Below are positions 2 to 43,735 of a DNA stretch of 64,000 nt, piece after piece (positions within the stretch are counted from its first letter, which is position 1; every line of letters begins with the position of its first letter). Position numbers and translations under genes: made by a program. Source of the DNA: an uncultured Ignavibacteriaceae bacterium (GTDB lineage Bacteria > Bacteroidota > Ignavibacteria > Ignavibacteriales > Ignavibacteriaceae); NCBI GenBank assembly GCA_963812305.1, contig CAWEUT010000025.1, forward strand, positions 8,930-72,929. Direction: 5' to 3'. A model generated the notes under the pieces. It was given only the letters and a program-made list of their open reading frames with translations, was not told the DNA's origin and did not search any database.

Positions 2-166
2 ATTGGTATTTCGCATTTGATAGAAGTTATTGAACAACTTAATCAGGGCAATGGTAAATTAGTTTTTACTAACCTTGATCCAACAATTGAAAAAACATTT
101 TCTATTATGGGATTGTTTCAGTTTGCCGATAAAGCCGATACTGTAGAGGCTGCTTTAAGTGCTTGA
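2..166 (+). CDS. STAS-domain protein (anti-sigma-factor antagonist family), C-terminal fragment; the 5' end is outside the window
   Basis: The frame is open from the window edge to TGA at 164-166 and translates IGISHLIEVIEQLNQGNGKLVFTNLDPTIEKTFSIMGLFQFADKADTVEAALSA. This is the typical C-terminal region of SpoIIAA/RsbV-like STAS proteins. It is absent from the ORF track because no start codon lies in the window. Confidence 0.5.
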   Translation: MGISHLIEVIEQLNQGNGKLVFTNLDPTIEKTFSIMGLFQFADKADTVEAALSA

Positions 167-222
167 TTATCATAGCGACTACAGATAAATATTTGTCTTC
201 GTTTTTTGGATAATTTTATTTC

Positions 223-314
223 TGTCATTTCGATCCCGATTCATCGGGAGAGAAATCTGATGAATATTGTCAAGCAGATTTCTCAGTCTGGCAGAGCCAT
301 TCTTCAAAATGACA
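223..314. repeat. REP/MITE-like imperfect palindromic element (TGTCATTTCGA ... TCAAAATGACA arms, inner CCCGATTCATCGGG hairpin)
   Basis: Outer arms tgtcatttcga / tcaaaatgaca and inner arms gagaaatctg / cagatttctc pair with each other. A clear second copy lies at 15222-15309, and related pieces lie at 38934-39021, 43275-43300 and 59505-59525. Confidence 0.7.
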
Positions 315-426
315 ATCTGGTAACTTGTCTTTAGACAGCATCATTAAAATTGTGTGATCAACAAATTCATCTTGCTTTTGATTTGAGCATCAAAAGTTAA
401 TATCCATTCATAAACAAAGATATATT

Positions 427-2028
427 TTGGAAAATAATAACCTTGTTGAAAAACTTGCTTTGCAGGTTGAGTCATTCCAGGAAGGATTTGAAGTTCTCTC
501 CAAATCCTTCAGTTTAGTTGAGATGGTAAAAAACTTTCTCCATATCATTCGCGGAAATTTTATAGTAACAGAAATCTATGCTTTTCATAAAATAAAAGAC
601 ATCCCTAATTGGAAAAATATTTCGCTGCAAAAAATTCCTGACGAATCATATTTAACTTACCTTTATGATTCTAATAATCCTTCAATAAAATATTTTGAGA
701 ATCAACAAATTGAAGTTTCAATTCTGCTTCCGCTTGTAGATCAATCCTATCTCGGAATTCTGATAGGTCCAAAGCTGGATAAATCCCGATTCACAGAACT
801 TGATAAAATTACATTACAGATATTAATTCAAGTGTTTGATAGTGCCCATAAATCATTCATAAATCAAAAAAAAGAAAAGTCATTAATATTTGGATTAAAT
901 GAAAAAGTAGTACAATTGAATAATCTAATCGACACTGTAATCGAAGCCTCGCGATACGATAAAAGAAGCGTGCTATTTGAATTGTCTCTTGAGAGGATTA
1001 CATCTCTGACAAATGCTTCTTCTGCGTTATTGCAAATCAGCAAAGAAGATAAAATTGAGCAGCACTATTCCTTTCCTGGAAATATTGATAAAAATAAGAT
1101 TCTAAATTCAAAGTTTAAATTAGAATCCTCATTCACCTATAACAATTTATCGTATCATTTTACACTTGCAGAAAAAGAAACACGTCACGGAGTTACTAAC
1201 TTTAATGAACTTGACAAACTACTCTTAGATGCTATTGCCCGTCAGGTACAGGCTTCAATCGAAAATCAATTTCTTAATAGTCAGGCTATTGAAAAAGAAA
1301 AAATGGAGCAGGAGTTAAATGTTGCCGCTTCAATTCAGCAAAGAATTCTTCCAACAGCATTACCAAAAATAGAAGGATTCGATCTTGCAGGAATTAATAT
1401 TCCATCAAAAGAAGTTGGCGGAGATTATTATAATTGCATTGATCTTGGAAACGGTAAGTTTGCTTTAATTATTGCTGATGTTGCAGGAAAAGGAATTGGA
1501 GCAGCATTGCTTGTTAGCACTTTAGATGCATCATTATATTCATATTTACAATTCGATATTCCTCTCACGGAAATGGCAGATAGATTAAATAAATTAATTT
1601 ATAAATCTTCTCCTGCGGATAAATACATAACATTTTTTATTGCCGTATTGGAATCAAAAACAGGTGAGTTGGATGTTGTTAATGCAGGACATAATCCGAT
1701 TTTCCTATTAAGAGAAAACGGTACAATGGAAAAACTTGATGCTGGTGGTGTGGGACTTGGAATGTTTGACTTTGGAATCCCATTCGCCGGACAAAAATCA
1801 ATTATGAATCCGGGTGATAAACTTTTCCTTTACACAGATGGCATCCCTGAAGCGATGAATGAAAAAGAAGAAGAATACTCAGATGAAAAAATGATTAAGT
1901 TTTTTACAGATAATTCAAACGCACCCTCCAAAGAATTTATTGATTCATTAGTAAAAGATGTTAAAGGATATTCAGGAACAGCTCCGCAAAGCGATGATAT
2001 AACAGCAATGATTCTTAAAAGAAATTGA
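427..2028 (+). CDS. SpoIIE-family PP2C serine phosphatase (RsbU-like) with an N-terminal GAF-like sensor region
   Basis: 533-aa ORF with a TTG start per the track. The C-terminal half carries SpoIIE motifs: EVGGDYYNCI, IADVAGKGIGAAL, NAGHNP, LYTDGIPEA, QSDDITAMIL. It is the most divergent of the eleven phosphatases in the window. Confidence 0.85.
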   Translation: MENNNLVEKLALQVESFQEGFEVLSKSFSLVEMVKNFLHIIRGNFIVTEIYAFHKIKDIPNWKNISLQKIPDESYLTYLYDSNNPSIKYFENQQIEVSILLPLVDQSYLGILIGPKLDKSRFTELDKITLQILIQVFDSAHKSFINQKKEKSLIFGLNEKVVQLNNLIDTVIEASRYDKRSVLFELSLERITSLTNASSALLQISKEDKIEQHYSFPGNIDKNKILNSKFKLESSFTYNNLSYHFTLAEKETRHGVTNFNELDKLLLDAIARQVQASIENQFLNSQAIEKEKMEQELNVAASIQQRILPTALPKIEGFDLAGINIPSKEVGGDYYNCIDLGNGKFALIIADVAGKGIGAALLVSTLDASLYSYLQFDIPLTEMADRLNKLIYKSSPADKYITFFIAVLESKTGELDVVNAGHNPIFLLRENGTMEKLDAGGVGLGMFDFGIPFAGQKSIMNPGDKLFLYTDGIPEAMNEKEEEYSDEKMIKFFTDNSNAPSKEFIDSLVKDVKGYSGTAPQSDDITAMILKRN

Positions 2029-2079
2029 ATCTTTCATAAACAGTTCACCTCATTTATTTAAATTTTATTTGGATTTACT

Positions 2080-5000
2080 ATGCGACTAATTAATAATACT
2101 TTCTTAATAATAGTTTTTCTGATATTGAATTATGCGGAAATTCATTCGCAGGAAATTCATGTAGAAAAAATCTCAATACCGGAAGGTCTCTCCAATACAA
2201 CTGTCAAAAGATTATTCCAGGATAGTTACGGACTTATCTGGATACCCACAGAAGATGGTCTTAATGTTTATGATGGATATAAAATAAAAATTTATAAAAA
2301 TATTCCTGGTAACCCCAAAAGTATTGTAGATAATAGTGTTTGGTGTGTTTCTGAAGATAAAGACAGAAATATCTGGATCGCTACGGAAGCAGGTGTTTCA
2401 AAATATATTCCTTCAGAAAATACATTTGTCAACTATGAAACTAAAGATATGGTTGCAAATATAAATGTCGGTTTAGCAAGAATTAATTTTATTTATGTTG
2501 ATTCAAAAAATAATGTCTGGGCTTCAACCAATTCGGTTGGAATAGTTAAGTACGATCGCAAATCTGATAAATGGGAACAAATAAAAGTAATTGTATCAGA
2601 TTCAATTTCTTATTATGCACCAAGTAGTGAAAGCAGTTATCCTATTACTGAAGACAATGATGGCAAGATTTGGGCTGGCAATTTTGGTTATGGGTTACTC
2701 TATTATGATTCAGATAAAAACGTTTTTAGACAGGCAGAAATAAAACGAAATTCTAAAACTCCAAATTTTGCACAAACGGGCAAAGAGATAACAGAACTTT
2801 ATTTCGATCAGAATAATGTTTTATGGTTAACTAACAGAAGTGGTGTTTATAAATACTATCCAAAGTCCTGCGAGTTAAAAACGATTGAAGAATATTCTGA
2901 TTACCAGTTAACATTTTTTGCTTATTATAATGGCATCACGCAGGACAAAGACGGAAATATCTGGATAGCAAATAATTTTCGCGGCTTATTAAAGTTTGAT
3001 GGTATTTCTGATAGTTATAAACGAATCCAAATTGAAGGAATTGGCTCTTTTTCAGATGGAAGATCAGAGATATTATTATCTGATGTTATGTTAGATAATA
3101 CCGGACTTCTATGGTTTGGTACAACGCTTGGCCGGTGTATTTAAATACAATCCGGATGCAGAACCCTTTATTCATTATAAAAATGATCCCAAAAATAAGT
3201 CCAGCATAAATAGCAGCCAGATATTTAGTATTGTCGAATCAAAAAAATATCCCGGTAAAATTTATGTTGGAACAAGGGGCGGAGGATTAAACTCATTTAA
3301 TCCTGTAACAAAATCATTTACGAATATTCCTTACAAAGTTATAAAGGATGTTTTTGGCGGATCGGTCCGGGCTATTTTAGAAGAACCTGATGGTTCATTA
3401 TGGCTCGGTACCTGGGGTGACGGACTTCTCAAAATGAATTCCAATTATGAGGTTGTTGAAAGATATACCCGCGATTCAACTAATACTAACAGTCTTTCTG
3501 ACGATAATATAAGAGTGATAAAGAAAGATAATAATGGAAATTATTGGTTAGGTGGTGCTGACCAAAGTTTAAATTTTATGGACGGAAAAACTAAAAAGAT
3601 ATCAAGAATCAATGAAGGAATATCTAATTATCCACAGGAATTAATTAATCTTCTAAAACAAAAGAACAAAGAAAAAAAATATTTAGCAGAGATAAAAGAA
3701 ATTGGTGATGCACAAGATCTAACACAAAAATTCTCCATATCTCAAAGTGGTGAATATCTTATTGTATCCGCAGGAGAAGGTGTAATTAGCAGAGATTCAT
3801 CGATGGCTGATTATGGATGGTTAGAAGACAGTAAAGGAAAAAAAATCTGGACATCTGTCGACATTTTAAAATCATATCATCTGGGCGGTGCGCCTAAAAA
3901 TAGAATTTATGCGGAGTTAATAAAACTTACGCCCGGTCAATATTCTTTACGATATGTTTCTGATAACAGCCATTCTTATAATCGATGGAATGCTGTTTCT
4001 CCTTATAACAAAGAATTTTGGGGTATAAGAATTTATCAAATGAGTGATGATGCTGAAGTTCAGACAATTCGCAATTATATAAAAGAAGCTGAAGGAAACA
4101 GATTTGCAAAAGGCGGAAACATAAGATCAATTAATGTTTCCGGGGATATTGTTTGGATTGGCAGTGATGATAATGGATTAACTAAATACAATATCAAAAC
4201 AAAGGAAGCAAAAAATTATTATTATCAGTTAAACAATCCCAATTCAATTAGTAACAACAGCGTTCAATTTATTTATGTAGATCCGAATGGCATTTTATGG
4301 TTAGCAACTAACGGTGGACTAAATAAGTTTGATCCAAAAACTGAAAAGTTCACTATCTATACAGAAGAAGACGGACTGCCTACAAATTATATTGCTTCAA
4401 TTTTACCCGGCAATAATGATGATCTTTGGCTGGCAACACGAAGCGGTATTTCTAAAATGATAAAGAATAAAATTACGGGTAAAGTTACATTTGTAAATTA
4501 TGATACCGAAGATGGATTAGGCGGAACAGACTTTGTAGCATTGGTTGCTCTTAAATCCAGCAGCGGCAAATATTATTTTGGCGGAGAGCATGGCTTGAAT
4601 GAATTTGGTGATGTTACAGTAAATCAAACTCCTCCAGCACTGATATTTTCAGATTTAAAAATATCCAACAAATCTGTTTTTATAATGGGTGATGATTCAC
4701 CTTTAACAACATCGATTTATGATTTAGAAAGTTTAACTCTAACTCATACTCAAAATGATTTAAGTTTTGAATATGCAGCTTTGCATTATGCCAAACCATC
4801 AAAAAACCAATATGCTCATATGCTAAAGGGCTACGATGAAGATTGGATTTATGATAATAAAAGATTTGCAACCTACACAAATTTAGATCCCGGTGAATAT
4901 GTGTTTATGATTAAAGGGTCAAACAGAGATGGAGTTTGGAATGAGAAGGGCAAATCTATTAACATTACAATACTTCCTCCGTGGTGGCTTACAACCTGGG

Positions 5001-5908
5001 CATACATCGGTTATGGGTTTTTATTCTTAGGATTTGTTTTTGTTGTGGATAGAGTTCAAAGAATAAGATTACTTACTAAAGAAAAAGAAAAACAAAAGTT
5101 AATTGAAGCCGAACATCGTATTGAAGCTGCAGAACTTAAAGCTAAAGCAACAGAAGCAGAAAGAAAAGTTCTGCAAGTTGAATTTGATATGAAGAAAAAA
5201 GAACTTGAAGAAGCTCGCGAACTTCAATTATCCATGCTTCCAAAAGAACTGCCTAATCTGCCACATCTTGATATTGCTGTTTATATGAAAACAGCTACTG
5301 AAGTAGGTGGGGATTATTATGATTTTCACGTTGGTATGGATGGAACTTTAACTGTTGTTATCGGCGATGCTACAGGACACGGAATGAAAGCCGGAACTAT
5401 GGTTACTGCAACTAAAAGTTTATTCAGTTCACATGCCGGCAATCCGGATATACTTTTTACATTTCAGGAAATTACTCGCTGCATAAAACATATGAATATG
5501 CACCTGGTTTCTATGTGTCTTTCAATTTTAAAAATACAGGGAAATAAAATACAGCTATCTGCAGCGGGTATGCCTCCTGCACTTTTATATAGAAGCAAAA
5601 CTAAATCAGTTGAAGAAATTGTTTTAAAAGGTATGCCTCTCGGAGCCTATCAGGATTTTCCTTATGAATTACGAGAGATGGAAATATTTTCAGGAGATAC
5701 AATCTTTCTAATGAGTGACGGATTGCCTGAATTATTCAACAGAAAAAAAGAAATGTTTGGATATGAAAGAATACTGGAACTGTATAAAAACTCTGCTGTC
5801 AAAAATCCGGAAGAGATAATTCAAGTACTCAAAACTGCTGGTTCAGACTGGACAAATAATGACGCACCTGATGATGACATTACGTTTGTTGTGATTAAAG
5901 TAAAATAA
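2080..5908 (+). pseudogene. Periplasmic Reg_prop beta-propeller / Y_Y_Y sensor - TM - coiled coil - SpoIIE phosphatase; one frameshift as assembled (possibly a sequence error)
   Basis: Track fragments 2080..3144 and 3116..5908 overlap. The first ends LLWFGTTLGRCI* and the second reads ...LAGVFKYNPD. Removing one base near 3131-3133 gives LLWFGTTLGGVFKYNP, a normal propeller blade. Other evidence: signal peptide, repeated G(L/F)xxYDG...IW(I/L)(A/G)T blades, Y_Y_Y (LSFEYAALHYAKPSKNQYAHMLKGYDEDW...YTNLDPGEYVF), TM WAYIGYGFLFLGFVFVV, and SpoIIE motifs GGDYYDF, GDATGHG, MSDGLPE, DDDITFVVIKVK*. Confidence 0.85.
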
Positions 5909-5920
5909 AAATTTTAATAG

Positions 5921-6516: not shown

Positions 6517-6565
6517 TCTTTTTTAAGCAATAAAAATATTAATTAAAAATAATTGTGGATCTGGA

Positions 6566-9500
6566 ATGAAAACAATCAAAACTGAAACTATTAATCCTAA
6601 AAAAGAAAATGAATTATTAAAAAAACAGCTTGCTCAGAAAGAAGCTGAACTTGCAATTATTAATAGTGTTGGCGAAGCGATGTCCAAAGAGTTGGATATA
6701 AACACTGTTACAAAAATTGTTGGAGATAAGGTAAGAGAAATATTTAATACTGAAGTAACAGAGATTCTATTACTGGATCATGAAAAAATGATGATTGAAA
6801 TTCCTTATTCATATTATAATGGATATCAGACTTTTGAAGCTTTTCCTCTGGGTGGTGGGTTGACTTCAAAAGTTATTAATTCCAGAAAACCACTGTTATT
6901 ACATACGCTTGAAGATCAAATTAAAAATGGTGCAATAATTCAAAGCGATGAAGACAAGACAGAGTCCTACATGGGAGTACCTATTTTGTTTAATGATAGG
7001 GTGTTGGGAGTAGTTAGCGTACAGAGTTATAAGAAAAATGTATATGATGAAAACAATGTTCGGCTTCTTTCAACTCTATCAACAAATATGGGTGTAGCTC
7101 TTCAAAATGCCAAACTGTTTGATAAAACAAAAAAATTACTAAATGAAACTGAGCAGCGCACGGCAGAACTAGTCAGTAATTAACAGCGTACAGGAAGGTC
7201 TTGCACGTGAACTTGAAATAAACGGGATATATGTAATGTGGTAGGCGAAAAACTACGAGAAATATTTAATGCTCAGGTCATAGACTATAGGCACTATGAT
7301 AAGTATGACGATAACCAGATATGCAGACATTAGCTTTGTTTGTACGAAAAAGGTGAACAGCCTTAACATTCCACCTCGGCCACCAAGAGCCTTCAGGGAT
7401 GTAATGGAAACAATGTAATCGAAACATGACAGCCATTAATGCTTAATAAAGATGTCAGATAAGGAAATGACTAAAATATGGTAACGTTCAGTTGCAATTG
7501 GTGAAATACCAGGAAATCTAATATTTTTGTTCCAATGATAGTTGGCGATGAACGTGTACACGGAGTAATAAGTTTACAAGAATCTCGAAAACGAAAATGC
7601 ATTTAATGATTCGGATGTAAGCCTGCTTACCACTCTAGCAAATCGTAATGAGCATTGCTCTGGAAAATGCAAGACTATTTGATGAAACAAATAAACTTTT
7701 GGAAAAAACAAAACAACAAGCTATTGAATTGGGTATAATCAATAGTGTTGGCGAGGGCTTAGCTAAACAATTGGACTTTCAATCTATCGTTGATTTGGTG
7801 GGAGACAAAATTAGAGAAGTATTTAATGCAGAAGTAGTTTCAATTTCAACATACGATGCAAGTAATGAAAAAATTCATCACAGGTATGTTGTTGAAAAAG
7901 ATGAAAGGTTTTACTTTGACACACCAATTGAAATCGATCCCGATAGAAAAGAAATAATCGAAACAAAACTCCCATTAATTTTTGGATCAAGTCAGGAAAT
8001 TATTGAACACAGTGGTGAACAAGTTCTCGATGGCGAAATGCCGGAATCATTTTTGGGCGTACCAATCATTCATAATCAAATGGCTACCGGTGTAATTACT
8101 ATTCAGGATTTAGATCGAAAAAATCTATATACAGAAAAGGATGGACAGTTACTTCTTACACTTGCATCTAATATGGGTGTTGCGCTTGAGAACGCTAGAT
8201 TATTCGAAGAAACAAAAAGATTATTAAATGAAACTCAGCAAAGAAATGTTGAACTTGCTATATTAAACGCTATACAGGAAGGGCTAGTAATGGAGATGGA
8301 TTTTCACTCCATAATTAATCTTGTTGGTGACAAATTCAGAGAAGCTTTGGGATTTCTTGATCTTGGAATTAGAATTTATGATAAAGAAAAAAATATTCTT
8401 CATTTCCCTTACGAATATGAGCATGGAGAAAAACTAGATCTTCCTTCAGGCGAACCAACTGTATTTTCCAAATATGTTTTGGAAAAAGGTGAGACACTTC
8501 TGTTAAATGAGAATACAGATGAAGAAGCCGCAAAACTGGGAATCACCGGTAACTTGACTATACCTGGAACCGACAGAAGCAAATGTCTTATAATGGTTCC
8601 GATTATGCTCGGCAACATTGCCAAGGGATTAATTCTGATTGAGAATTATGAACGAGAAAATGCATTTACGGAATCAGAAATTCGGTTACTTACAACAATC
8701 GCCAACAGCATGAGTGTTGCTTTAGAAAATGCACGATTATTTGATGAGACAAACCGATTATTAAAAGAAACTGAGCAACGTACTGCGGAATTATCTGTAA
8801 TAAATAGTGTGCAGGAAGGATTAGCAAAAGAACTAGATACAATGGGAATTTATAATCTAGTTGGTGACAGGCTCTGCAGTTTATTTCCCGATTCTCAAAC
8901 TCTGGTTATCCGAACATTTAATCATGATACTGGTCTTGAAGAGTGGCAGTTATGCCGTGGAAAAGGGAATTCGATTAGAAGTTGAACCACGTCCATTCAT
9001 TTGGGCAAATAAACAACTTATAGAAACTAAGAAACACCTTGATATACGTGAAAATTATGTAGAGACAGCAAAAAAATATGGCGGTACGGGAGTTTCAAAA
9101 GGTCAGCCTCCTAAATCTGCGGTCTTTGTTCCAATGATAGCAGGAGATGTAGTTATTGGTTCAATTAGTCTCCAAAATATTGATAAAGAAAATGCGTTTA
9201 GTGAATCCGATGTTAGATTGCTGACCACAGTGGCAAATAGTATGAGTGTTGCTCTGGAGAATGCACGTTTATTTGATGAAACATTAAGACTTCTTGATGA
9301 AAGTAAAAAGCGCGCAGCAGAATTAGGTACTGTTAATAGTATTAGTCAGGCTATAGCAGGACACCTTGAAATTGACAAACTTATTCACCTAGTTGGTGAA
9401 AAGGTTCGAACATTATTCAATGCAAATATCGTTTACCTGGCATTGCTGGATAAGGAAAAAGAAATTATTGAGTTCCCGTATGGTTACGGAGATGATTATC

Positions 9501-10630
9501 CACCGCTAAAATTAGGTGAGGGATTAACATCGAAAATAATTTTGAAGAAAGAACCCCTCCTTATAAATCATGAAGTTGATAAAAAAACTGAACAACTTGG
9601 TGTACAAAGAATAGGAACTCGTTCTGCATCTTATCTTGGTGTTCCAATTCCTGTCGGTGAAGAGATAATTGGAGTATTAAGTGTTCAAAGTACTGAAAAT
9701 GAAAATGTTTTTTCTGATGATGATATGAGGCTTCTTGGAACCATTGCTGCTCATGTAGGTATAGCAATTAATAATGCCAATGCTTATGAAGAGTTAACTA
9801 AGACTTTACAAAATCTTGAAGCTACGCAAGTACAGCTTATCGCTCAGGAAAAACTTGCCTCACTCGGTCAGTTAACTGCAGGTATTGCTCATGAAATAAA
9901 AAATCCTTTGAACTTTGTTAACAATTTTTCTGAGCTCTCGGTTAATTTAGTTGATGAGCTAAGAGAAGAGTTTGAAAAACTTAAAGGCAAAGTTGACGCA
10001 ACCGTACTGGAAGAATTGGAAGATATTCTAAAAACATTAAAACAGAATTCTGAAAAAATTAAAGAGCACGGAAAGAGAGCTGATAGTATTGTTCATAGCA
10101 TGCTGCAGCATTCAAGAGGTAAGACAAGTGACAAACAGTTGACAGATATTAATTCAATGCTTGACGAAGATCTAAATCTTGTGTATCACGGTATGCGCGC
10201 ACAGGATAGCACCTTTAATATTAAGATTGAAAGGGAATACGATAAAACCATAAGTAAGATAAATGTAATACCGCAGGATATAAGTCGTGTGTTTTTAAAT
10301 ATACTTACTAATGGATGTTATGAAGCCCATAGGAAAAAGTTAGAATTAAAAACAGAAGACCCTGCAAAGATAAAAGTTAGAACTTCTGAAACTGATAAGT
10401 TTATTGAAGTACGAATCAGAGATAACGGCAGCGGTATTCCTGAAAAAATCAGAGGCGATCTTTTTACACCTTTCTTTACAACCAAACCAACAGGAAAAGG
10501 TACCGGTCTTGGTTTATCGATAAGCTATGACATAGTAGCAAGAGAACATCATGGTGAACTTCTATTTGAAACTGAAATAGACAAGTACACTGAATTTATT
10601 ATCCGATTACCTAAAAATCTTAAAAACTAA
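6566..10630 (+). pseudogene. Cytoplasmic sensor histidine kinase with six tandem GAF modules + HisKA + HATPase_c; the frame is broken several times as assembled
   Basis: Track fragments are 6566..7183, 7648..8985 and 8861..10630, with a heavily frame-shifted stretch at 7184-7647. The linker ALENARLFDET(N/L)(K/R)LL(K/N/D)E(T/S).(Q/K)R..EL..(I/V)NS(V/I) recurs about every 540 nt: 7120, 7660, 8190, 8710, 9250 and 9780. Kinase motifs: H-box LTAGIAHEIKNPLNFV, N-box LNILTNGCYEA, G1 RDNGSGIP, G2 GKGTGLGLSISYDIV. Frame breaks lie near 7178, at many positions in 7184-7647, and near 8948. Confidence 0.8.
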
Positions 10631-24694: not shown

Positions 24695-24717
24695 TAAAAA
24701 TAATGGCATCGACGGTT

Positions 24718-31600: not shown

Positions 31601-32297
31601 AGCCAGACAATTACAATTATCTATGCTTCCTAAAGAACTTCCGCAATTACCAAATCTTGAAATTGCAGTTTATATGAAAACTGCAACAGAAGTTGGAGGT
31701 GATTATTATGACTTCTCAACAAAGAATGACGGATCGTTAAATATTGTATTAGGTGATGCAACCGGACATGGAATGAAAGCAGGCACTCTTGTTTCAATGA
31801 TGAAATCACTTTTCACTGCAAATTCAATAGACAAAAGTCTGGAAGATTTTTTTAACACATCTAATGAAGCGTTAAAAAATTCAAGACTGGATAAAATGAT
31901 GATGGCTTTTGCAATGATAAATATTAATTCCAATAAACTAAAAATTGCAAATGCAGGAATACCTCCAGTTTATATTTATAGAAAAAAGAAAAATGATGTT
32001 GAAGAAATAAACCTTTACGGGCTGCCGCTTGGGGCAATGTATAATTCTAAATATGATATTTATGAAAGTGATCTTGCAGGAGGCGATACAATTTTATTGT
32101 TAAGTGATGGATTACCCGAATTGAAGAATGAAAAAGACGAGCAGTATAATTACGTAAGAGTAAAGGATGAATTCAAATCAGCAGCACAAAAAAGTCCACA
32201 TGAAATTGTTGAGCATTTAAACAACTCAGCATCTCAGTGGATTAACGGAGTAGAACCAGATGACGATGTAACGTTTGTTGTAATAAAAGTAAAATGA
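28605..32297 (+). CDS. Large extracytoplasmic sensor (divergent propeller-like repeats + Y_Y_Y) - TM - SpoIIE phosphatase
   Basis: Intact 1230-aa ORF that starts 27 nt after the previous stop and has the same architecture as 24939..28577. Y_Y_Y FIFNYSTLNYKDPKSAIYQHKLEGYDLDW...YQNVPPGDYVFKV, TM WAYAFYAFLFGGFLFSV, and SpoIIE motifs ending DDDVTFVVIKVK*. Confidence 0.85.
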   Translation: MKKINILIHTILFSIFILNSSVAQQRYKSEANADLVKYTIKDGLPITNIASVSQTADGYVWISGLEGTVRFNGYEFQEPGKEFGLPDMQSNYYDSTTNTMYFASPNKFLILKENKFQSFTKEDGYKTSGLPGRSVSFIKKDSKNRVWIGTTTLYIDSKNNGSLTLFENGKFTLFDSTTFPLHNCTDMFETPYGDLIFLSDGKNTSTQTEAYIALYKNDKFKKIDKTKGVMYYGTKYSYEKVLPVTDDKGNMWIPFIGSGILNELTSGTSGVLMYDGKDFHTYPGLEKYLVGNTRVTSVLYLEKDNGIYATIADINGTVYSKNSNILFKLVNNKWEKVDLYKDTGPITDLSTEDKIPDYKFSYAKLIPGNNIFPDLLLVGVLEETITAEHNDQYFYFDGRWKKYDGFKGFPLSPINDAEVILNPLGFSFYFPNKSIFLKGSDGLSGIKTQYPYMYSDKNGIIWIYFSWIENPPDVLFGNDGLNVWDGTKLHKITTNEGLSSNTVLRVFEDSKGRIWLTTDKGLDLAKAISTRKDQWVIKINPIKKNDGKIYVSSYILETKSGDIFTWQNYVRTAYGNVPQADFFLGKLVDDKIVEIPNPLPDNLKKIKYQEHNLYELPNGNLLLASSYSESASNLESSKSNLLIYDFKKWSEPPSSWNVPEEILNYVGTVNNKMYFLSPGHFYSFDGAKFIDLSDSVNSNADFRILKEANTAGTTTNIQAGNYLYIRLRLKGMAIFDGTKLDFYTTKNGLPTANIYNPLTDLKGNVYFIHNLGGLIINGERFNTYYNDNSSFAGQSAITQDRNGSILTWYNNFGVYVDRENKSQGSINLSSIKVNSSQYFYNKPSEYTYSDNSFIFNYSTLNYKDPKSAIYQHKLEGYDLDWSKSSNLQFSEYQNVPPGDYVFKVIAIDKAGSKANQVTYAFTISPPFWKTWWAYAFYAFLFGGFLFSVRKFELNRQRKNTAIRESQLRAEAAELQAKAAEAQSKVIQAENDRKSIELEEARQLQLSMLPKELPQLPNLEIAVYMKTATEVGGDYYDFSTKNDGSLNIVLGDATGHGMKAGTLVSMMKSLFTANSIDKSLEDFFNTSNEALKNSRLDKMMMAFAMININSNKLKIANAGIPPVYIYRKKKNDVEEINLYGLPLGAMYNSKYDIYESDLAGGDTILLLSDGLPELKNEKDEQYNYVRVKDEFKSAAQKSPHEIVEHLNNSASQWINGVEPDDDVTFVVIKVK

Positions 32298-32325: not shown

Positions 32326-33465
32326 ATGAAAGCAAAATCAATAAAAGGTAAATCACCGGAAGAAATTAAAAATGAATTAGCAAAAAGTATTGCTGATGGA
32401 TTTACACCGACATTGGCGATTATTTTTTTATCTGTAAATCTGGATCGAGATTCTATCTGCAAAATATTTGATGAGAAAGGGATTACAATCTTTGGATCAA
32501 CTGCTGCAGGAGAATTTATTAATGGAGAATTGGAAAAAGAATCGGCCGCAATTCTTTTACTTAATATGGACAAGAATAATTTTTTTGTGCACATTGAAGA
32601 AAGAAGTGGAAAAAGTAAATTGAGAACTGCTGCAGAAATCAGTAAAAAGGGTTTAGATAGATTTTCAAATCCTGCTTATCTTGTTGCAACAGGAGGTTCA
32701 ATCATTGATGGCGAAACAATTATCAGCGGAATAAATAGTACTTCAGGAAAAAACTCAATTGTATATGGAGGTATAGCCGGTGACGAGTTGCGTGGAACTG
32801 AAACACATTTATTTACAAATAAAAAATCCACCCAGGATGGAATAATTGCATTAATTGTAGATCATGATAAAATACAATTGACCGGTTTAGCATCACATGG
32901 CTGGAAACCAATTGGAACAATAAGAACGATTACAGATTGTGAAGATTGTAAAGTTTATACGATCGATGATGAACCTGCACTTGATATTATGACAAAATTC
33001 CTTGGTATTTCTTTAGAAGATTATCCAGGAGATGAATTAATAAATAATGTAGGAAATCTGGATCCCATACAGTTGATGAGGGATGATGGAACCACAATAA
33101 CCAGGGCTATCAGAAATCTTAATAAAATAGAAAGATCAATACTACTTGCGGGACCAGTAACGCGCGGAACAAAAATCAGGTTTTCTTTACCTCCGGATAA
33201 TAATAATATACAGCAGGTTACCGAGGAGTGTAGATATTTAAAGGAAATATTTCAACCTCAAGCAGAGGCAATGATAATGTTTTCCTGCATTGGACGATAT
33301 TATTCTTTGGGTCCATTAGTGTCATCTGAGATTGAAGAAGTTAAAGATGTTTGGGATTCTCCAATGGCGGGGTTCTTCTGTTATGGCGAAATCGGAAATT
33401 CTTTAAAAGGCAAGCAGGAATTTCATAATAATACTTGCTGCATCGTAGTGATGAAAGAAAGATAA
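32326..33465 (+). CDS. Stand-alone FIST-domain sensor protein (FIST_N + FIST_C), paralog 1 of 4
   Basis: 379 aa. N-terminus MKAKSIKGKSPEEIKNELAKSIADGFTPTLAIIFLSV. C-terminus PMAGFFCYGEIGNSLKGKQEFHNNTCCIVVMKER, a GEI...FHN.T ending typical of FIST_C. It aligns over its full length with the three downstream paralogs. Confidence 0.7.
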   Translation: MKAKSIKGKSPEEIKNELAKSIADGFTPTLAIIFLSVNLDRDSICKIFDEKGITIFGSTAAGEFINGELEKESAAILLLNMDKNNFFVHIEERSGKSKLRTAAEISKKGLDRFSNPAYLVATGGSIIDGETIISGINSTSGKNSIVYGGIAGDELRGTETHLFTNKKSTQDGIIALIVDHDKIQLTGLASHGWKPIGTIRTITDCEDCKVYTIDDEPALDIMTKFLGISLEDYPGDELINNVGNLDPIQLMRDDGTTITRAIRNLNKIERSILLAGPVTRGTKIRFSLPPDNNNIQQVTEECRYLKEIFQPQAEAMIMFSCIGRYYSLGPLVSSEIEEVKDVWDSPMAGFFCYGEIGNSLKGKQEFHNNTCCIVVMKER

Positions 33466-33513: not shown

Positions 33514-34314
33514 ATGATAAAATTCTTCCGTAACATCCGAAAAAAACTTTCAGCTGAAAACAAAGCAGCAAGCTATCTCCGTTATGCTATCGGTGAAATT
33601 GTTCTTGTAGTTATTGGAATACTCATTGCTTTGCAGATTAATAATTGGAATGAAGCGAGAAAAGAAAGAAACAATGAAATAAAATATCTTAAAAATCTAA
33701 AACTAGATTTAAAAACTGATTTAGTTAATTTGGATTCAATGATAGTTGATCGGCGTAATAAAATGTTGTCAGCGAACACATTATTAACGCTTCAACCACC
33801 AAAAACAATAGACCAATTAAAATCGTTTGATAGACTATTATGGAAAGTTTATGGCTGGACAAGTTTTACACCGCGAACAATTACGTTAGATGAATTGATT
33901 AGCTCCGGAAGTTTAAACATTATTAAAAATGATTCTATTAAGTTCTATTTGTTAAGTATTAAAGAAAAAAATGAAACGATAGTAATTTATCGTGAGCATA
34001 TGAGACATGAATACGATAACTACTTATATGATCGCACTTGGCCTATTCTTGAAATCAGACCCTTTTTGGATTTTGAAAAAACAATAACGCAAAAAACAAG
34101 AATTGATATTGAAATATCAGAGGATAAAAGAAAACAACTTGCGTCTCAAGCAGCAATCTTCTTAAATGATATGACTATCAGAAATGGTCTCAGATTAGCG
34201 GCAATGAATAACTTTGGTATTCTTAATTTATATGAATCACTTTATGCAGAAATACAAAAACTAATTAAATTTATTGATGAAGACATAGATGAAGAGCCAT
34301 TAAAAAATTCATAA
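33514..34314 (+). CDS. N-terminally anchored membrane protein, DUF6090-like
   Basis: The N-terminus MIKFFRNIRKKLSAENKAASYLRYAIGEIVLVVIGILIALQINNWNE matches, from memory, the signature N-terminus of DUF6090 family proteins of Bacteroidota. The rest of the protein is helical. It interrupts the FIST array. Confidence 0.55.
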   Translation: MIKFFRNIRKKLSAENKAASYLRYAIGEIVLVVIGILIALQINNWNEARKERNNEIKYLKNLKLDLKTDLVNLDSMIVDRRNKMLSANTLLTLQPPKTIDQLKSFDRLLWKVYGWTSFTPRTITLDELISSGSLNIIKNDSIKFYLLSIKEKNETIVIYREHMRHEYDNYLYDRTWPILEIRPFLDFEKTITQKTRIDIEISEDKRKQLASQAAIFLNDMTIRNGLRLAAMNNFGILNLYESLYAEIQKLIKFIDEDIDEEPLKNS

Positions 34315-34320
34315 GAAAGT

Positions 34321-37908: not shown

Positions 37909-37916
37909 ATTATAAA

Positions 37917-38889
37917 ATGAATCAAAAGCTTCAAAACATATTAAAAATTCTTGAGCAAAATCAAAACCTTTCTGCTGAGGAGAAGGAATCAGCATTAAAG
38001 GCTTTAAAGGATGCTGACAAAGAATTTGAAATAACAGCCTTTAAACTTGAACGTACAGAGAAAGTAAAAAAAACGACAGCGATTTTGCTTGAAGAAACAA
38101 TTGAGGAACTTGAACAAAAGCGAAAAGCTGTTGAAGAACAAACTAAAATAATTCACGCAGAGAACGACAGGAAATCCAAAGAGCTTGAGGATGCAAGACA
38201 ATTACAATTGGCAATGCTTCCTCGTGAACTTCCAAGAGTTGCTAATCTTGATATTGCTGTGCATATGAGAACAGCAACAGAAGTTGGTGGTGATTATTAT
38301 GATTTTCATGTCCAGCCCGATGGTACTTTGACTGTTCTTGTCGGTGATGCGACGGGTCATGGAATGATGTCGGGAATGATGGTATCAATTATGAAATCGT
38401 TTTTCATTTCTAATCGATCGAATCTGGAATTGAAACAATTTTTTGAAAACTGTAACAACTCTATTAAAGATATGCACCTTGGACAGATTAATGATGGCTA
38501 CAATGGGTGTTCAAATTACTTCTGAAAAAGTTATTGCTACTAATGCTGGAATGCCATCACTGCTTTACTTTAGAAATAAATCTAAGAAAGCCGGAGAGTT
38601 TGTTAGCAATAATTTGCCCTTGGGTGGAATGAAGAATACAAATTATTCACTAAAAGAGATCAGATATGAAAAAGGCGATACATTGTTACTTATGAGTGAT
38701 GGATTTGCTGAATTAATGAATGAGAAAAATGAACAATATGGATATGAAAGAGTGAAGAAGGAATTTATGTCTGTTGCACAAAAAAGTCCTAATGAAATAG
38801 TTGAACATCTTAAAAACTCAGCATCTCAATGGATTAACGGAATAGAGCCCGATGATGATGTAACGTTTGTGGTAATAAAAATTAAATAA
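37917..38889 (+). pseudogene. Sensor-less coiled-coil - SpoIIE phosphatase; a single inserted base as assembled
   Basis: ATG 37917 lies 8 nt after the FIST4 stop; the track ORF starts earlier, in frame, at 37881. The N-terminal ~95 aa is only predicted coiled coil (LERTEKVKKTTAILLEETIEELEQKRKAVEEQTKIIHAENDRKSKELEDARQLQLAMLP). Fragments are 37881..38525 and 38443..38889. Compared with the paralog at 42811-42860, aaagatatgcaccttggaCagattaatgatgg carries one extra C at 38484. SpoIIE motifs are intact and the protein ends DDDVTFVVIKIK*. Confidence 0.8.
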
Positions 38890-38933
38890 ATAATCACCCC
38901 GACTTTAGGTATTGTGTTAAAATATGTATGACG

Positions 38934-39021: not shown

Positions 39022-39177
39022 GAATTGTATTTTTCACCCAGCCTCTAAAGAGCGTGGCTATTAAGAGGAAAAAAACATTGTTGCAGCAAACCCATGAGCC
39101 TTTATAACCTGTAGTCAGGTTCGGGTTAAGACTAGTTGGATATTTTAAGAACTCAATCAATAAAAGATTTGTGAACT

Positions 39178-42100
39178 ATGAACGATAAAAAAGAAAAATT
39201 ATTAAACGATACATACCAGAAATGGATTCATACAAGTTTGTATGATTTACCATTGGATGCAATAAATGATTTTGTTGATCCTAAGATAATGGGATACGGT
39301 ACTGCTGTTGATGAAAAAGTTCTTTCCATAACTGACTATCGTAAATTGTTAAATACACAAAGAAAACAGGCTGTTGGTCTTGATATGAGTTTTGAAATTA
39401 CTCCTGTTTTCAGAAGTATATCAAACAAAGAAGATTCTGCAATTTTTGTTGATGAAATCACTGTTTCAATAATTGTAAATAAAAATAAACAGGGACTCTT
39501 TTTAAGACTCACCACTATTTTAGATTACATTGATAGTAAATGGATAGTGGTCCATTGGCATGGTTCTATACCGACTGAAACAACTGCTGAATCCGATACC
39601 TGGCTTGTAAATGAATGGAAAAGAAAAAATGAAGAACTTCAAAAACTTGTTGATGAAAAAACTTCAGAGCTATTGAATAAAAACCGTGAGCTTGAAATTG
39701 AAGCCTCATTGGAAAAAGTTCGCACAATTGCAATGGGGATGAGGAAACCAGATGATATGCTGGATGTGTGCAAGACAATTTCACTTCAACTCCATTCATT
39801 GGGTGTAAAGGAAATTCGTAATGTGCAAACAGCTATCTTTTATGAGCAACTCGGCACTTATATGAATTATGAATATTATGCAAAGCACGACAAGACCTTT
39901 ATTACAGAAACTTCATATACAAACCATGAAATGCATAAAGAATTTGCGGCAAAAATGCTGAGGGGCAAGGGAGAAACCTTTATCACACATATAAAAGGCG
40001 ATGACGTAAAAGACTGGATTGATTATCAAAAAACGACAAATGTTTTTATTGACAAGTATCTGGAAACTGCTTCTTCAGTTAACTATTATTGGTTTTCTCT
40101 CGGTCCAGTTGCACTTGGAATTTCAACATACCGCCCTTTAACAGAAGAAGGTATAAATCTATTCAAACGATTTGTAAAAGTGTTTGAATTGGCATATCAA
40201 AGGCACCTGGATATTGAAAAAGCTGAAGCTCAGGCAAGGGAAGCGAAGATAGAAACTTCGCTTGAAAGAGTGCGCGCAAGAACAATGGCGATGCAAAAAA
40301 GTGAAGAACTGAATGATGTAGTAATGACATTATTCGGTCAAATGAAAGACCTGGGAATTGATATTGATGGAATTAATATCAATATATTGATTGATGACCT
40401 AACCGGTTTTGAGTCCTGGTTTACAGCCCCTGGTTATACAAAAGCCGTTTGCCTGTATACTCCTTATTTCAACACCCCTGTAATGAATGATATTTTTAAT
40501 GCGGTTAAAAGCAAACAGGATCTTCTCAGTAAGATTTACCCGAAAGAAGAAAAAGACGCCTACTTCTCTTACCTATATGAACATACTGATTATAAAAACC
40601 TGCCGGATGAAAGAAAAAAAATGATCCTTGACGCTGAAGGCTGGTGCCTGTCTGTAGGACTTGCAAATAATATAGGCATCAGTATACATAGCTACACTGA
40701 TAGAACATTTTCTGAAAAGGAACATGATATTTTAAAACGGTTTGCCAAAGTATTTGAACAAACCTACACCCGTTTTCTCGATCTAAAAAAAGCAGAAGCA
40801 CAAGCAAGAGAAGCTAAGATAGAAGCTGCTTTGGAAAGAGTTCGTGCTGTTGCTATGAGCATGCACAAATCTGATGATATTATTAGTATTTGCGAAGTGT
40901 CATTCAAAGAGTTTCAAAAGTTGGGCTTTGATAACCTCCGGAATGCTATCATCCATATTCCAAATGACGAACAAAAATATTTCATGGATTATGACTATTC
41001 AGAATTTACCGGTGGCGCAATAACGAAAATTAAATATGGTTCACATCCCATTGTAGATGAATATCTGGAAAAAATCAGAATAGCCGAAGATGCCTATTTT
41101 GAAGTAGTCATAAATGAAAACCAGCTGGCAGGATGGAAAGACTTCAGAAAAGAATCCGGACAGCTGGATGATCCACGATTAGATGATGCAAGAGCACTTT
41201 ATTACTATCTCTTTTCCATCGGAATCGGTGATATCGGTATATCTACGTTTAGACCGATTGAGGACTCCCAAATTAAAATTCTTAAACGATTCAGAAATGT
41301 GTTCGATCTTGCATACCGAAGGTATAATGATATTTCACTTGCAGAAGCACAGACAAGAGAAGCTCAGATTGAAAGCGCGCTTGAAAAAATTCGTTCCCGA
41401 TCTCTTGCAATGCAAAAAAGTGATGAGTTGAAGGAAGTGATAACAGTGGTTATTATGAAACTGCAGGAGCTGGGTATGGCAATGGAAGGTCGTGTAGCTG
41501 GAATCTACACTTTTGAAGATGATTCAAAAGATCATATTCAGTGGGTAGCTTCACCTCAATTTACTTCTACATTGAGCATCCATGTTCCTTATTTTGTTCA
41601 TCCCATTATTGACGAATTCATTGAGTTCCACGAAAAGAGAGGTATACTCAATAAAATATATTCTCGTGAATTAAAAGATAGTGCATTCCGGATTATGTAT
41701 CAGCTTCCAGAATTGAGAGACAATCCAGAAAGTGAAAAGGAATGGGTTTTTGGAGCAAAGGATTATTCGTTGAGTGTTGCATTTGAAGACTATTCCGCAG
41801 TTGGTATTGCCAGCTTCCCCGCAAAATTATTTACTGAAAATGAGATAGCAATTCTGAAAAGATTTGCCAAAGTTTTTGAACAAGCATATATCCGTTTTCT
41901 CGATCTCCAAAAAGCCGAAGCACAAGCCAAGGAGGCTCATATAGAAGCAGCATTGGAAAGAGTGAGAAGCAGAACAATGGGTATGCAAAAAAGCGAAGAA
42001 CTGAAAGAGGTAATTCGGGTTGTTTATGAACAGTTCGTACACTTAAAGATCAGTGTTGACCATGCAGGTTTTGTAGTTGATTATAAACCAAAAGGCGATT

Positions 42101-43234
42101 GGCATTTTTGGATCGCTGATGAGCAGGACATTCCTTCTAAAATAACTCATCCATATTTTGAGTCTGTTTGGGCAAATCAATTTAATGAAGCAAAAGAAAA
42201 AGGTGCAGACTTCTTTGCCACCAATTTAAATTTTGAAGAAAAGAACAAATTTTACAATGAACTTTTATCACACGTTAACGGGTTACCGGAAGCATCAAAA
42301 GATTTTTATTTGAGCTGCCCCGGCCTTGCAATATCAACAGTGTTGTTAGAGAACGTTAGTCTGTACATCGAGAATTTTTCGGGTATTCCTTACTCAGATG
42401 AAGAGAATAACACGCTTATGCGATTTGGAAAAGTATTCCAGCAAACCTATACACGTTTCCTTGATTTACAAAGGGCAGAAGAACAGAATAGAATTATACA
42501 AGCAGATAATGACCGTAAAACAAAAGAGCTTGAAGATGCACGTCAGCTACAACTATCTATGCTTCCAAAAGAACTTCCTCAACTTACCTCATCTGGATAT
42601 TGCTGTTTATATGAAAACTGCAACAGAAGTTGGCGGAGATTATTATGATTTTAATGTTGATGCTTATGGCACTTTAACTATTCTTGTTGGTGATGCTACA
42701 GGACACGGAATGATGTCGGGAATGATGGTTTCGATTATGAAATCGTTTTTCATTTCTAATAGAAACAATATTGAGTTAAAACAATTTTTTGAGGATGCAA
42801 ACAATTCAATAAAAGATATGCACCTTGGAAGATTAATGATGGCTACAATGGGTGTTCAAATTACATCCCAAAAATTAATCGCTACAAATGCCGGAATGCC
42901 ATCTTTACTTTATTTTAGAAATAAATCGCAAAAGGCTGGTGAGTTTGTTAGTCATAATTTTCCATTAGGAGCAATGAAAGAAACAAAATATTTGTTGAAA
43001 GAAATTAACTATGAGAAAGGTGATACACTATTGCTGATGAGTGATGGATTTGCAGAGTTAAAAAATGATAAGAATGAGCAATACGGTTATGACAGAGTAA
43101 AAAAAGAATTTCTGTCTGTTGCACAAAAAAGTCCGAATGAAATAGTTGAACATTTAAAAAACTCAGCATCCGAATGGATTATTGGAGTAGAACCTGATGA
43201 CGATGTTACATTTGTTGTAATAAAAGTAAAGTAA
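39178..43234 (+). pseudogene. Cytoplasmic NTF2/SnoaL-like domain + five tandem ~185-aa modules + SpoIIE phosphatase; a single inserted base as assembled
   Basis: Fragments are 39178..42648 and 42398..43234. ...LPKELPQL(T)SSGYCC versus the expected LPQLPHLDIAVYMKTATEVGGDYYDF; there is one extra A near 42586. The linker F(A/V/R/G)KVF(E/D)..Y.R(F/H/Y)(L/N)D(L/I)..AEAQ(A/T)(R/K)EA.IE(A/T/S)(A/S)LE(R/K)(V/I)R(A/S)....(A/G/S)M(Q/H)KS(E/D)(E/D) recurs at about 40216, 40786, 41338 and 41908, with a shorter first copy at 39693 and a last copy at 42469 that leads into the phosphatase. Confidence 0.8.
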
Positions 43235-43420
43235 AAAGAATAACCCCAATTTTTAAAAATTATGTGAAAATTATGTTTGTCACTTCGAGCAAGGGAGAAG
43301 TCTTTTGATTTGTATAGTTTTTTATAAAGAATAATTGATGAATATTATTATTGCATTTTTATTAAACAAATATTTTTTGTAATTATAATATGTAATAAAT
43401 ACAAACTTGAAAGGATAGAG

Positions 43421-43735
43421 ATGGAAATAAATGTTGACGCCCGCGAAGACTTCACGATTATAAAGTTTAACAAAAGTAAACTATTAGGCACAGAGGCAGT
43501 AGAGTTTCAAGATTCTGTTCTTAATACATTAGACAAAGGCATACACTCTATTGTTGTTGATCTTTCTACTGTAGAGTATGTTACAAGTTGGGCAATAGGA
43601 ATGCTCGTGCACGCCTTTACAACCTCAAGTAACCGTAATGCACAACTTAGTTTGGTCGGAGTAACTCAGAGGGTTAAGGATATTTTAGCAAAGGTTAAAC
43701 TGGATACAATATTTTTGATTCGAGAATCCATTTAA
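43421..43735 (+). CDS. STAS-domain protein (SpoIIAA/RsbV-type anti-sigma-factor antagonist)
   Basis: 104 aa. ...SIVVDLSTVEYVTSWAIGMLVHAF... aligns with the DLSxVxF(M/I)DS(S/T)GLG phosphorylation segment of SpoIIAA/RsbV and keeps the Ser. The C-terminal part LVGVTQRVKDILAKVKLDTIF is also STAS-like. Confidence 0.75.
   Translation: MEINVDAREDFTIIKFNKSKLLGTEAVEFQDSVLNTLDKGIHSIVVDLSTVEYVTSWAIGMLVHAFTTSSNRNAQLSLVGVTQRVKDILAKVKLDTIFLIRESI

Follow-up and report, generated by a model that had tools for sequence, protein, structure and literature searches.

Partner switching is already known, as are phosphatases with PAS, GAF, REC and HAMP inputs. In Bacillus cereus, for example, a sensor histidine kinase (RsbK) reportedly acts through a REC-PP2C protein (RsbY) on RsbV, a precedent that de Been is said to have described in 2010. 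Genome-wide expansions of SpoIIE-like phosphatases have likewise been described, with 46 members in Streptomyces coelicolor and 13 in Sorangium cellulosum (PMC2887360). Work on RsbU has led to the proposal that sensors activate PPM phosphatases through a coiled-coil linker which, once ordered, brings the PPM domains together as dimers, and AlphaFold models extend this linker mechanism to PAS, GAF, REC and HAMP inputs (PMC12143880). In Bacteroidota the propeller/Y_Y_Y head senses glycans and is found joined to different, exchangeable outputs, such as the GerE output of BguR (bioRxiv 10.64898/2026.01.10.698779). Here we describe an array of SpoIIE-type PP2C phosphatase genes found in a window of 64,000 nucleotides (the whole stretch of DNA that was analysed; contig CAWEUT010000025.1, positions 8,930 to 72,929) from an uncultured Ignavibacteriaceae bacterium. 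With moderate confidence, we regard this array as an Ignavibacteriaceae partner-switching locus with an extreme phosphatase fan-in.

Every credible gene from position 2 to 43735 lies on the plus strand, and once split open reading frames (ORFs) are merged there are 20 co-directional genes, as an earlier sequence-only reading of the window had counted. Pfam also bears out its 11 SpoIIE/PP2C genes and two STAS genes: PF07228 is found at the C-terminus of 11 genes (whole-domain E 1e-24 to 1e-43; 87-147 bits against a cut-off of 25, the larger fragment of the phosphatase gene g37917 scoring 78.8 bits), and STAS domains are found at 2-166, where the window edge cuts the gene, and at 43421-43735. 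We refer to these genes as STAS1 and STAS2. The remaining genes of the array encode a stand-alone REC protein, a histidine kinase with five GAF domains, four FIST proteins and one DUF6090 protein.

Other features of that first reading need revision, namely that the two STAS genes bracket the array, that there is no kinase, and that the fan-in is 11 to 2. Conspecific assemblies, all about 98% identical to the window, are available for comparison: ERZ25039545 contig_26854 (loci L001 and L064), ERZ25039462 (L065) and ERZ25039527 (L062 and L063). L001 reaches 5 kb upstream of window position 1, and there, 14 nt upstream of STAS1 (L001:4392-4808), it encodes a 138-aa HATPase_c_2 protein (PF13581, 1.7e-20) whose best PDB matches are RsbW 6M36 and SpoIIAB. 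Judged by its position in L001, this kinase lies about 200 bp outside the left edge of the window, so that its apparent absence was an artefact of that edge. Upstream of the kinase stands a 12th Reg_prop/Y_Y_Y/PP2C gene (1070 aa, intact in the related locus L003), and farther upstream a giant type IX secretion system (T9SS) cargo protein marks the left end of the array. The kinase/STAS1 pair is therefore interior to the array, which (window plus the upstream part of L001) spans about 47 kb and holds 12 phosphatases, one kinase and two STAS proteins. The phosphatases fall into two classes, A (g427) and B (the other eleven). The genes of the array that lie in the window, where GC content is about 33%, are as follows.

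2..166, plus strand: STAS1 (RsbV/SpoIIAA-like), C-terminal 54 aa, Pfam STAS; the full gene of 111 aa is at L001:4822-5157
427..2028, plus strand: g427, class-A PP2C of 533 aa, two GAF-like alpha/beta domains and PP2C, Pfam SpoIIE 1.1e-42
2080..5908, plus strand: g2080, class B, 1275 aa with the inserted T at 3128 removed, Pfam; an intact 1275-aa ortholog is found in L003
6145..6516, plus strand: stand-alone REC protein, Pfam Response_reg 6.9e-25
6566..10630, plus strand: 5xGAF-HisKA-HATPase_c histidine kinase, Pfam; 1167 aa and intact in L001
10631..11788, plus strand: g10631, class-B REC-PP2C of 385 aa, Pfam REC and SpoIIE
11803..15171, plus strand: g11803, class-B Reg_prop/Y_Y_Y-TM-PP2C (TM, transmembrane segment) of 1122 aa, Pfam; same length in L001
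15437..19207, plus strand: g15437, class-B Reg_prop/Y_Y_Y-TM-PP2C of 1256 aa, Pfam; modules in other species 88-93% identical
19292..21380, plus strand: g19292, class-B PP2C of 695 aa after frame correction near 19620, Pfam SpoIIE
21417..24701, plus strand: g21417, class-B Reg_prop/Y_Y_Y-TM-PP2C of about 1085 aa, Pfam; an intact 1106-aa ortholog is found in L021
24939..28577, plus strand: g24939, class-B Reg_prop/Y_Y_Y-TM-PP2C of 1212 aa, Pfam; orthologous modules up to 97% identical
28605..32297, plus strand: g28605, class-B Reg_prop/Y_Y_Y-TM-PP2C of 1230 aa, Pfam
32326..33465, plus strand: first of four stand-alone FIST_N+FIST_C proteins, Pfam
33514..34314, plus strand: DUF6090 protein, Pfam
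34379-35539, 35562-36746 and 36769-37908, plus strand: three further stand-alone FIST proteins, Pfam
37917..38889, plus strand: g37917, class-B PP2C of 323 aa, the N-terminus being an 83-aa coiled coil alone, Pfam, frame-corrected
39178..43234, plus strand: g39178, class-B PP2C of 1351 aa, SnoaL_3, five GAF-fold modules and linker, Pfam, frame-corrected
43421..43735, plus strand: STAS2, 104 aa, the final gene of the array, Pfam STAS/STAS_2

The kinase was used as a query against one genome per GTDB species, and 59 loci were recovered, nearly all with the label Ignavibacteriales, Ignavibacteriaceae or Melioribacteraceae. Flanks of 10 kb on either side were labelled with hidden Markov models (HMMs) built from the window's own domains. 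The order kinase-STAS-PP2C, with a g427-type PP2C, is found in about 57 of the 59 loci, and in more than half of them the next gene upstream of the kinase encodes a class-B PP2C. Up to four phosphatase genes are visible per locus, which is about the maximum that such flanks allow for genes of 3.5 kb. FIST runs, DUF6090 runs, SnoaL-module phosphatases, REC-GAF-HK-REC-PP2C units (HK, histidine kinase) and a second STAS at the end are met with repeatedly, their order differing between loci; the second STAS closes the array in L009, L010 and L032 as well. Comparison of the neighbourhood in relatives, which the sequence-only reading had proposed, thus finds a conserved core and a recurrent second STAS, while the accretion of phosphatases varies. 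The serine in the VVNSIG motif of STAS1 aligns with the phospho-serine Ser58 of SpoIIAA and is invariant in the 59 loci. STAS2, whose closest solved relatives are TM1081, RsbS and SpoIIAA, has a serine that aligns with the DS motif of TM1081 and RsbS and is kept in its orthologs.

Modules encoded in other species are 77-97% identical to g427, g0, g15437, g21417, g24939 and g19292, and the best paralog of these six genes within the window is 30-68% identical; summarised more narrowly, orthologous modules are 82-97% identical and in-window paralogs 53-68%. Judged by these sequence identities, the paralogs are old and have been maintained. In the literature we found nothing on PP2C arrays of Ignavibacteria, on Y_Y_Y-SpoIIE proteins or on FIST-PP2C pairs.

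An alignment of the 12 phosphatases shows that the metal-binding Asp residues of the four characteristic motifs are kept in all of them, in agreement with what had been read for the 11 window genes, although g427 has variant forms (GGDYYN, ADVAGKG, TDGIPE and SDDIT). The same alignment upholds the junction and the C-terminus DDD(V/I)TFVVIK(V/I)K as common to ten of the 11 window genes. Together with the upstream 12th gene, these ten form class B, in which the part from linker to stop is exactly 240 aa long, free of indels and 45-85% identical between members, and includes a conserved helical linker of about 20 aa (..EN(D/E)RK(S/T)KELEEARQLQLSMLP..). By sequence and fold, the relatives of the PP2C domains include Rv1364c, SpoIIE, RssB, SiaA and RsbX, several of which are partner-switch phosphatases. 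The one phosphatase that was modelled, g427 (AlphaFold2 (AF2), predicted local distance difference test (pLDDT) 78.8), is predicted to have a pair of small alpha/beta domains with long helices connecting them, and a PPM fold for which Foldseek returned Rv1364c, SiaA, RssB, SpoIIE and RsbX at E values of about 1e-12. In the model a 47-residue helix (261-307) runs into the PP2C domain and would match the proposed coiled-coil linker; the linker+PP2C unit of class B appears to fit the same scheme.

The favoured reading can be put as a mechanism. An rsbW-rsbV-rsbU-like cassette forms the core, consisting of the HATPase_c_2 serine kinase, STAS1 and the cytoplasmic tandem-GAF-like PP2C g427, with the kinase presumably phosphorylating STAS1 on its conserved serine. 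Round this core eleven class-B phosphatases would have accreted, all with one plug-in output unit of linker and PP2C and with different inputs, namely seven periplasmic propeller/Y_Y_Y heads, one 7TM receptor, one REC domain that the neighbouring 5xGAF histidine kinase would feed, one cytoplasmic sensor made of a SnoaL domain and five GAF-fold modules, and one sensor-less coiled coil. A stimulated sensor would order or dimerise its linker and switch on the PP2C domain by the RsbU/RsbP/RsbZ mechanism; the active PP2C would strip phosphate from STAS1 and/or STAS2; and the dephosphorylated STAS protein would capture the kinase, releasing or altering an output partner encoded elsewhere. It is from co-location only that we infer the convergence of all phosphatases on STAS1/STAS2, and the enzymatic activities, the pairing of phosphatases with STAS proteins and of FIST proteins with a PP2C, the ligands and the output are to be read in the same conditional sense. 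In a wider and more tentative form, to which we give slightly less than an even chance, a single sigma-less RsbW/RsbV-type switch would be the common sink for a dozen or more strain-variable sensor phosphatases across Ignavibacteriales, most of them with periplasmic glycan heads of a type not known outside the transcription regulators of hybrid two-component systems (HTCS) and BguR; the cues would be summed into one global decision, and the 240-aa unit would be a cassette swapped by recombination.

The inputs of the phosphatases are diverse. Pfam confirms most of the assignments in the sequence-only reading, i.e. Reg_prop/Y_Y_Y in six genes, REC in one and SnoaL_3/NTF2-like in one, whereas 7TMR-DISM is below threshold (PF07695 in g19292, 17.6 bits against a cut-off of 29, E 0.0038). 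In g19292 a periplasmic domain is followed by 7-8 hydrophobic, presumably membrane-spanning and 7TMR-DISM-like segments, the linker and PP2C; its homologs P0035 and P0036 are annotated with PF07695. With the upstream 12th gene included, seven phosphatases have heads composed of Reg_prop, Y_Y_Y and a single TM segment; in g2080, for example, the order is signal peptide, Reg_prop propellers, Y_Y_Y, TM segment, coiled-coil linker and PP2C. A TM motif, PPWW..WAY, can be read from the translations 3' of Y_Y_Y. The cytoplasmic part of these proteins consists of linker and SpoIIE alone, and the HisKA-HATPase_c-REC-AraC output is not found in them. For the N-terminus of g427, where Pfam has no match, the GAF-like assignment is supported by the predicted fold, which Foldseek matches to the tandem GAF of PDE5A and to phytochrome modules. 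This N-terminal domain is restricted to 88 Ignavibacteria proteins in a homolog search in which no returned protein was longer than about 1.75 times the query.

The stop codon of the histidine kinase gene directly adjoins the start codon of g10631, which encodes REC-PP2C, and the order HK-REC-PP2C recurs in L021 and L034. By analogy with RsbK/RsbY, g10631 is the probable phospho-acceptor of the upstream 5xGAF kinase. The five modules of about 190 aa in g39178 (39652-42474) have no Pfam GAF match even at E<=1, and hhalign, run against GAF repeats from the window itself, yields a probability of 0.6%. One of these modules was modelled (AF2, pLDDT 96.2) and has a predicted GAF fold; the Foldseek matches listed are mostly GAF domains and GAF-containing photosensory modules (TM-scores 0.44-0.57, E down to 2e-5). 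In Bacteroidota, 1211 relatives of this family can be detected, in Chitinophagaceae, Flavobacterium, Mucilaginibacter and other groups; every one is annotated as 'hypothetical', and the number of such modules ranges from 3 to 7 between species.

NosP, a haem-based sensor of NO, is a stand-alone FIST protein encoded beside the signalling enzyme that it regulates. In the array, g37917 starts 8 nt past the last of the four FIST genes, and the same adjacency is found in four assemblies (L062-L065) and in L018. By comparison with the pairs RsbT/RsbU and RsbQ/RsbP, and with NosP and other FIST sensors that stand alone, we suggest that the four FIST proteins probably control the sensor-less g37917 in trans. 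They carry the Pfam domains FIST_N and FIST_C and resemble NosP weakly, their 28.7 bits lying far below the cut-off of 450 for the NosP equivalog (NCBIfam). The three FIST genes between 34379 and 37908 form a block of higher GC content (39-40%, compared with about 33%), and those at 34379 and 35562 have 86-91% DNA identity to L018, where neighbouring genes have about 79%. Recent transfer is one possible cause of this pattern, unusually strong conservation another. Tandem runs of DUF6090 genes recur in related arrays.

Five of the 11 phosphatase genes in the window (those at 2080, 19292, 21417, 37917 and 39178) and the GAF histidine kinase are broken by frameshifts or a stop, which at face value would fit a decaying array, i.e. 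a graveyard of duplicated sensors with many phosphatase pseudogenes and no working hub. This explanation is essentially refuted by comparison between four conspecific assemblies, each of which shows different, private 1-nt indels. Relative to L001 the window has single extra bases at 3128 and 8948, and L001 has its own single-base deletions elsewhere in g427 and g2080. The sequence of g21417 is noisy around 23490-23560 and changes frame near 24555. Corrected for a frameshift near 38480, the protein of g37917 is identical at 323/323 positions to that of the intact L062 gene, and g39178, with a frameshift near 42580, matches the intact 1351-aa L062 gene at 1344/1351. Intact orthologs are also present in short-read (Illumina) metagenome-assembled genomes (MAGs), for example of g2080 (1275 aa, L003), g21417 (1106 aa, L021) and the SnoaL-PP2C protein (1169-1726 aa). 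Moreover, the housekeeping genes for an OmpA-type protein and NFACT, which lie outside the array (44527-45547 and 45665-47276), are likewise broken in the window and intact in L062. The window has the look of a consensus built from long reads in which some indel errors remain, and we read the breaks in the array genes as assembly errors because the private indels differ from assembly to assembly and the genes are intact elsewhere. The histidine kinase gene is broken by the inserted A at 8948 and by a noisy insert of 530 bp (7136-7665) that is found neither in the 98%-identical L001 nor in L003. The insert is a degenerate copy of the fourth GAF repeat, broken in frame several times, with an identity of about 73% to 8758-8853 and to 9125-9258. 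The stretch was probably left uncorrected or was misassembled, and is possibly a decayed duplication. Misassembly of repeats was considered as the origin of the array and ruled out because three other, independent assemblies (L001/L064, L065 and L062/L063) agree with the window in gene order, at 98% identity, over 1-16434 and about 26.8-53.7 kb.

The remaining alternatives concern what the phosphatases do. By structure and by sequence, the relatives of the PP2C domains include REC-PP2C proteins of the RssB type, and the domains might then serve as dimerisation scaffolds or, like E. coli RssB, as adaptors without catalytic activity; we consider this very improbable, given that all 12 genes keep the four metal-binding Asp motifs, that the Pfam matches span the whole domain, and that the array embeds a kinase/STAS pair with a conserved phospho-serine. 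The serious rival is that g427 alone serves the kinase and STAS1 while class B acts on other substrates (STAS2 alone, a STAS protein encoded elsewhere, or unrelated Ser/Thr phosphoproteins), the genes lying together solely through local tandem duplication and domain shuffling. Several observations lean this way and weigh against a common sink. Class A is 23-30% identical to the eleven others, a dissimilarity that means a single common substrate is not a given, and specificity in this phosphatase family resides in variable surface loops (PMC11418112), so that on sequence grounds classes A and B may share no single substrate. A minimal relative, L032, has just one class-B PP2C, the kinase, STAS1, a class-A PP2C and STAS2. 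Two kinase-STAS(-PP2C) cassettes are found in some relatives (L056/L061 on OZ245062.1, L031/L044, L026/L053 and L013/L058); on OZ245062.1, a Melioribacteraceae chromosome, they lie about 5 kb apart (kinase starts separated by 4.9-5.5 kb). Against the favoured reading itself it counts that the core proteins score below the NCBIfam equivalog cut-offs: the kinase has 51.7 bits against 145 for RsbW and 49.5 against 135 for SpoIIAB, and STAS1 has 39.8 against 114.75 for SpoIIAA. STAS2 comes near the cut-off of the broad ant_ant_sig superfamily model (52.1 against 53.45 bits) and reaches no equivalog cut-off. Among the 59 loci an extracytoplasmic function (ECF) sigma factor gene is present in three, on inconsistent strands, and no sigma factor is linked consistently; nor did a test for constraint at the hub give an extra signal, STAS1 being better conserved than the kinase in 20 of 41 comparisons.

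Set against this rival are the class-B gene that, in over half of the 59 loci, is the kinase's next neighbour upstream, the single kinase seen in the array of about 47 kb, and the phosphorylatable serine that STAS2 keeps with no kinase of its own nearby. Even if the rival were true, 11 phosphatases would converge on few substrates. We therefore hold the parallel arrangement to be unlikely, though well above the adaptor explanation, and retain the reading of a partner-switching locus with extreme fan-in. The hub proposed in the sequence-only reading has gained a kinase, a core kept across nearly all related loci and a conserved phospho-serine; it is weakened by the division of the phosphatases into two very different classes. 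The earlier remark that no sigma factor is in view and that the output is not visible still stands, since none is present in the window or consistently linked in the related loci. Because the core proteins score below the equivalog cut-offs and no sigma factor is linked, the locus appears to work like a partner switch without being orthologous to the sigma-B or sigma-F modules. Apart from the ECF genes, clustering of unlabelled ORFs in the 59 loci returned, as candidates for a linked regulator, an AraC-type gene in four loci.

The sensor repertoire differs between strains. In L063, which is 98.4% identical to the window over 34379-47919, g21417 and g28605 are missing; its g24939 is an allele of 87% identity set between stretches of DNA that are 98-99% identical, and its DUF6090 gene is 84% identical. 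These differences map to 21417-24701, 24927-28591, 28605-32250 and 33475-34353 of the window. There is thus strain-level gain and loss as well as mosaicism inside the array, i.e. rapid turnover. The loss of two paralogs at strain level suggests that the repertoire is tuned on short evolutionary time-scales. Exact-sequence look-ups of g427, the FIST protein at 32326, the DUF6090 protein, g28605 and the FIST protein at 34379 returned none on record.

Further features of the region were noted. The giant T9SS cargo protein (Laminin_G_3, beta-helix, VWA and Por_Secre_tail; L003 1291-6671, L001 34-1005) is encoded on the upstream side of the kinase cassette in 32 of the 59 loci, which may reflect a functional link or synteny alone. 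In 22 of the 59 its gene is preceded by an ORF of 165 aa that has no family match; this was considered as a regulator and rejected, being a small secreted protein. A 35-nt hairpin-forming element (..TCATTTCGACCCCGATTCATCGGGG..GAAATC) is present in two intergenic gaps of the array (223-257 and 15222-15256, 94% identical), and an imperfect palindrome of about 150 bp (5913-6058) occupies the gap 3' of g2080. Both may be terminators or resemble repetitive extragenic palindromic (REP) elements. Promoter and terminator scans of 1-40 kb gave counts no higher than expected from shuffled sequence, the sigma-70 consensus being ill-suited to this phylum, and the terminator scan yielded one convincing hairpin (24765-24789); an inverted-repeat scan of the array showed nothing notable. 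Past 43735 the strand switches, and ordinary genes follow (OmpA-type, NFACT, rpe, folP, cdaA, parAB and others), none of those in the window encoding a kinase or a sigma factor. Among them, 47478-48155 encodes a stand-alone protein of three PASTA repeats in an ORF without a kinase or penicillin-binding protein (PBP) domain; it adjoins rpe, folP and the c-di-AMP synthase gene cdaA (49747-50565).

What is unusual here is the contiguous array with its lopsided stoichiometry, and not the number of phosphatases alone. New elements are the combination of an HTCS-type head with a PP2C output, the unannotated family of GAF-fold modules and the strain-variable sensor repertoire. If the phosphatases do converge, the ratio of 12:1:2 (phosphatases, kinase, STAS proteins) would, as far as we know, exceed any phosphatase fan-in so far described for a contiguous partner-switching array. 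The locus would then be a natural experiment in two respects: on how unrelated sensors drive one PPM module through a coiled-coil linker, with eleven different inputs placed on an indel-free output that is 45-85% identical, and on how paralogous phosphatases keep or relax their substrate specificity. The HTCS-type glycan head would have a third kind of output, a Ser/Thr phosphatase, which would imply a different carbohydrate-sensing logic in a widespread environmental lineage; with a common sink, polysaccharide and other cues would be summed instead of switching on separate utilisation loci. Should the phosphatases act in parallel on other substrates, the locus would be a duplication hotspot and only moderately interesting.

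Comparison with described systems places the array between several of them. As in S. coelicolor and S. cellulosum there are many paralogous SpoIIE-type phosphatases with differing sensors, but in those genomes the genes are mostly unlinked, and kinases and STAS proteins have expanded in parallel (PMC2887360). The Rsb system of Chlamydia trachomatis (RsbU, RsbW, RsbV1 and RsbV2) is similar in that one RsbW-type kinase goes with two STAS proteins, that the sensor phosphatase is membrane-bound and has a periplasmic head, and that the switch has no sigma factor gene of its own beside it (PMC11619594); there, in contrast, the sensor phosphatase is single and the genes are dispersed. With HTCS and BguR the seven propeller-headed phosphatases share a signal peptide, Reg_prop beta-propellers, Y_Y_Y and a single TM helix. 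Their output differs, being a coiled-coil linker with PP2C in place of the HisKA/HATPase/REC/AraC of HTCS or the GerE of BguR, and by domain content they would not bind DNA directly; nor is there an adjacent polysaccharide utilisation locus (PUL).

A close parallel to the core is sigma-B regulation in Bacillus subtilis, where PP2C proteins with an input domain and helical linker, a STAS protein with a conserved serine and an adjacent small HATPase_c_2 kinase are also found, and where more than one phosphatase (RsbU and RsbP) feeds one STAS protein (RsbV), RsbW being both kinase and anti-sigma factor. The array departs from it in having 12 contiguous phosphatases instead of two and two STAS proteins per kinase, in the mostly periplasmic inputs, in kinase and STAS scores below the equivalog cut-offs, and in the lack of a sigma-B-like gene in the operon or within 10 kb across the 59 genomes. 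The sub-cluster of REC protein, 5xGAF histidine kinase and REC-PP2C (6145-11788) resembles RsbK-RsbY of B. cereus in that a two-component kinase lies beside a receiver-PP2C whose target would be a STAS protein, but here it is one of twelve inputs, with a five-GAF sensor and an extra stand-alone REC protein. B. subtilis also employs partners in trans, RsbT for RsbU and RsbQ for RsbP, comparable to the pairing proposed here between the FIST proteins and g37917. Similarly, FIST proteins of the NosP type are stand-alone FIST_N+FIST_C proteins encoded beside a signalling enzyme, whereas the array has four tandem paralogs, and their partner would be a PP2C phosphatase instead of a histidine kinase.

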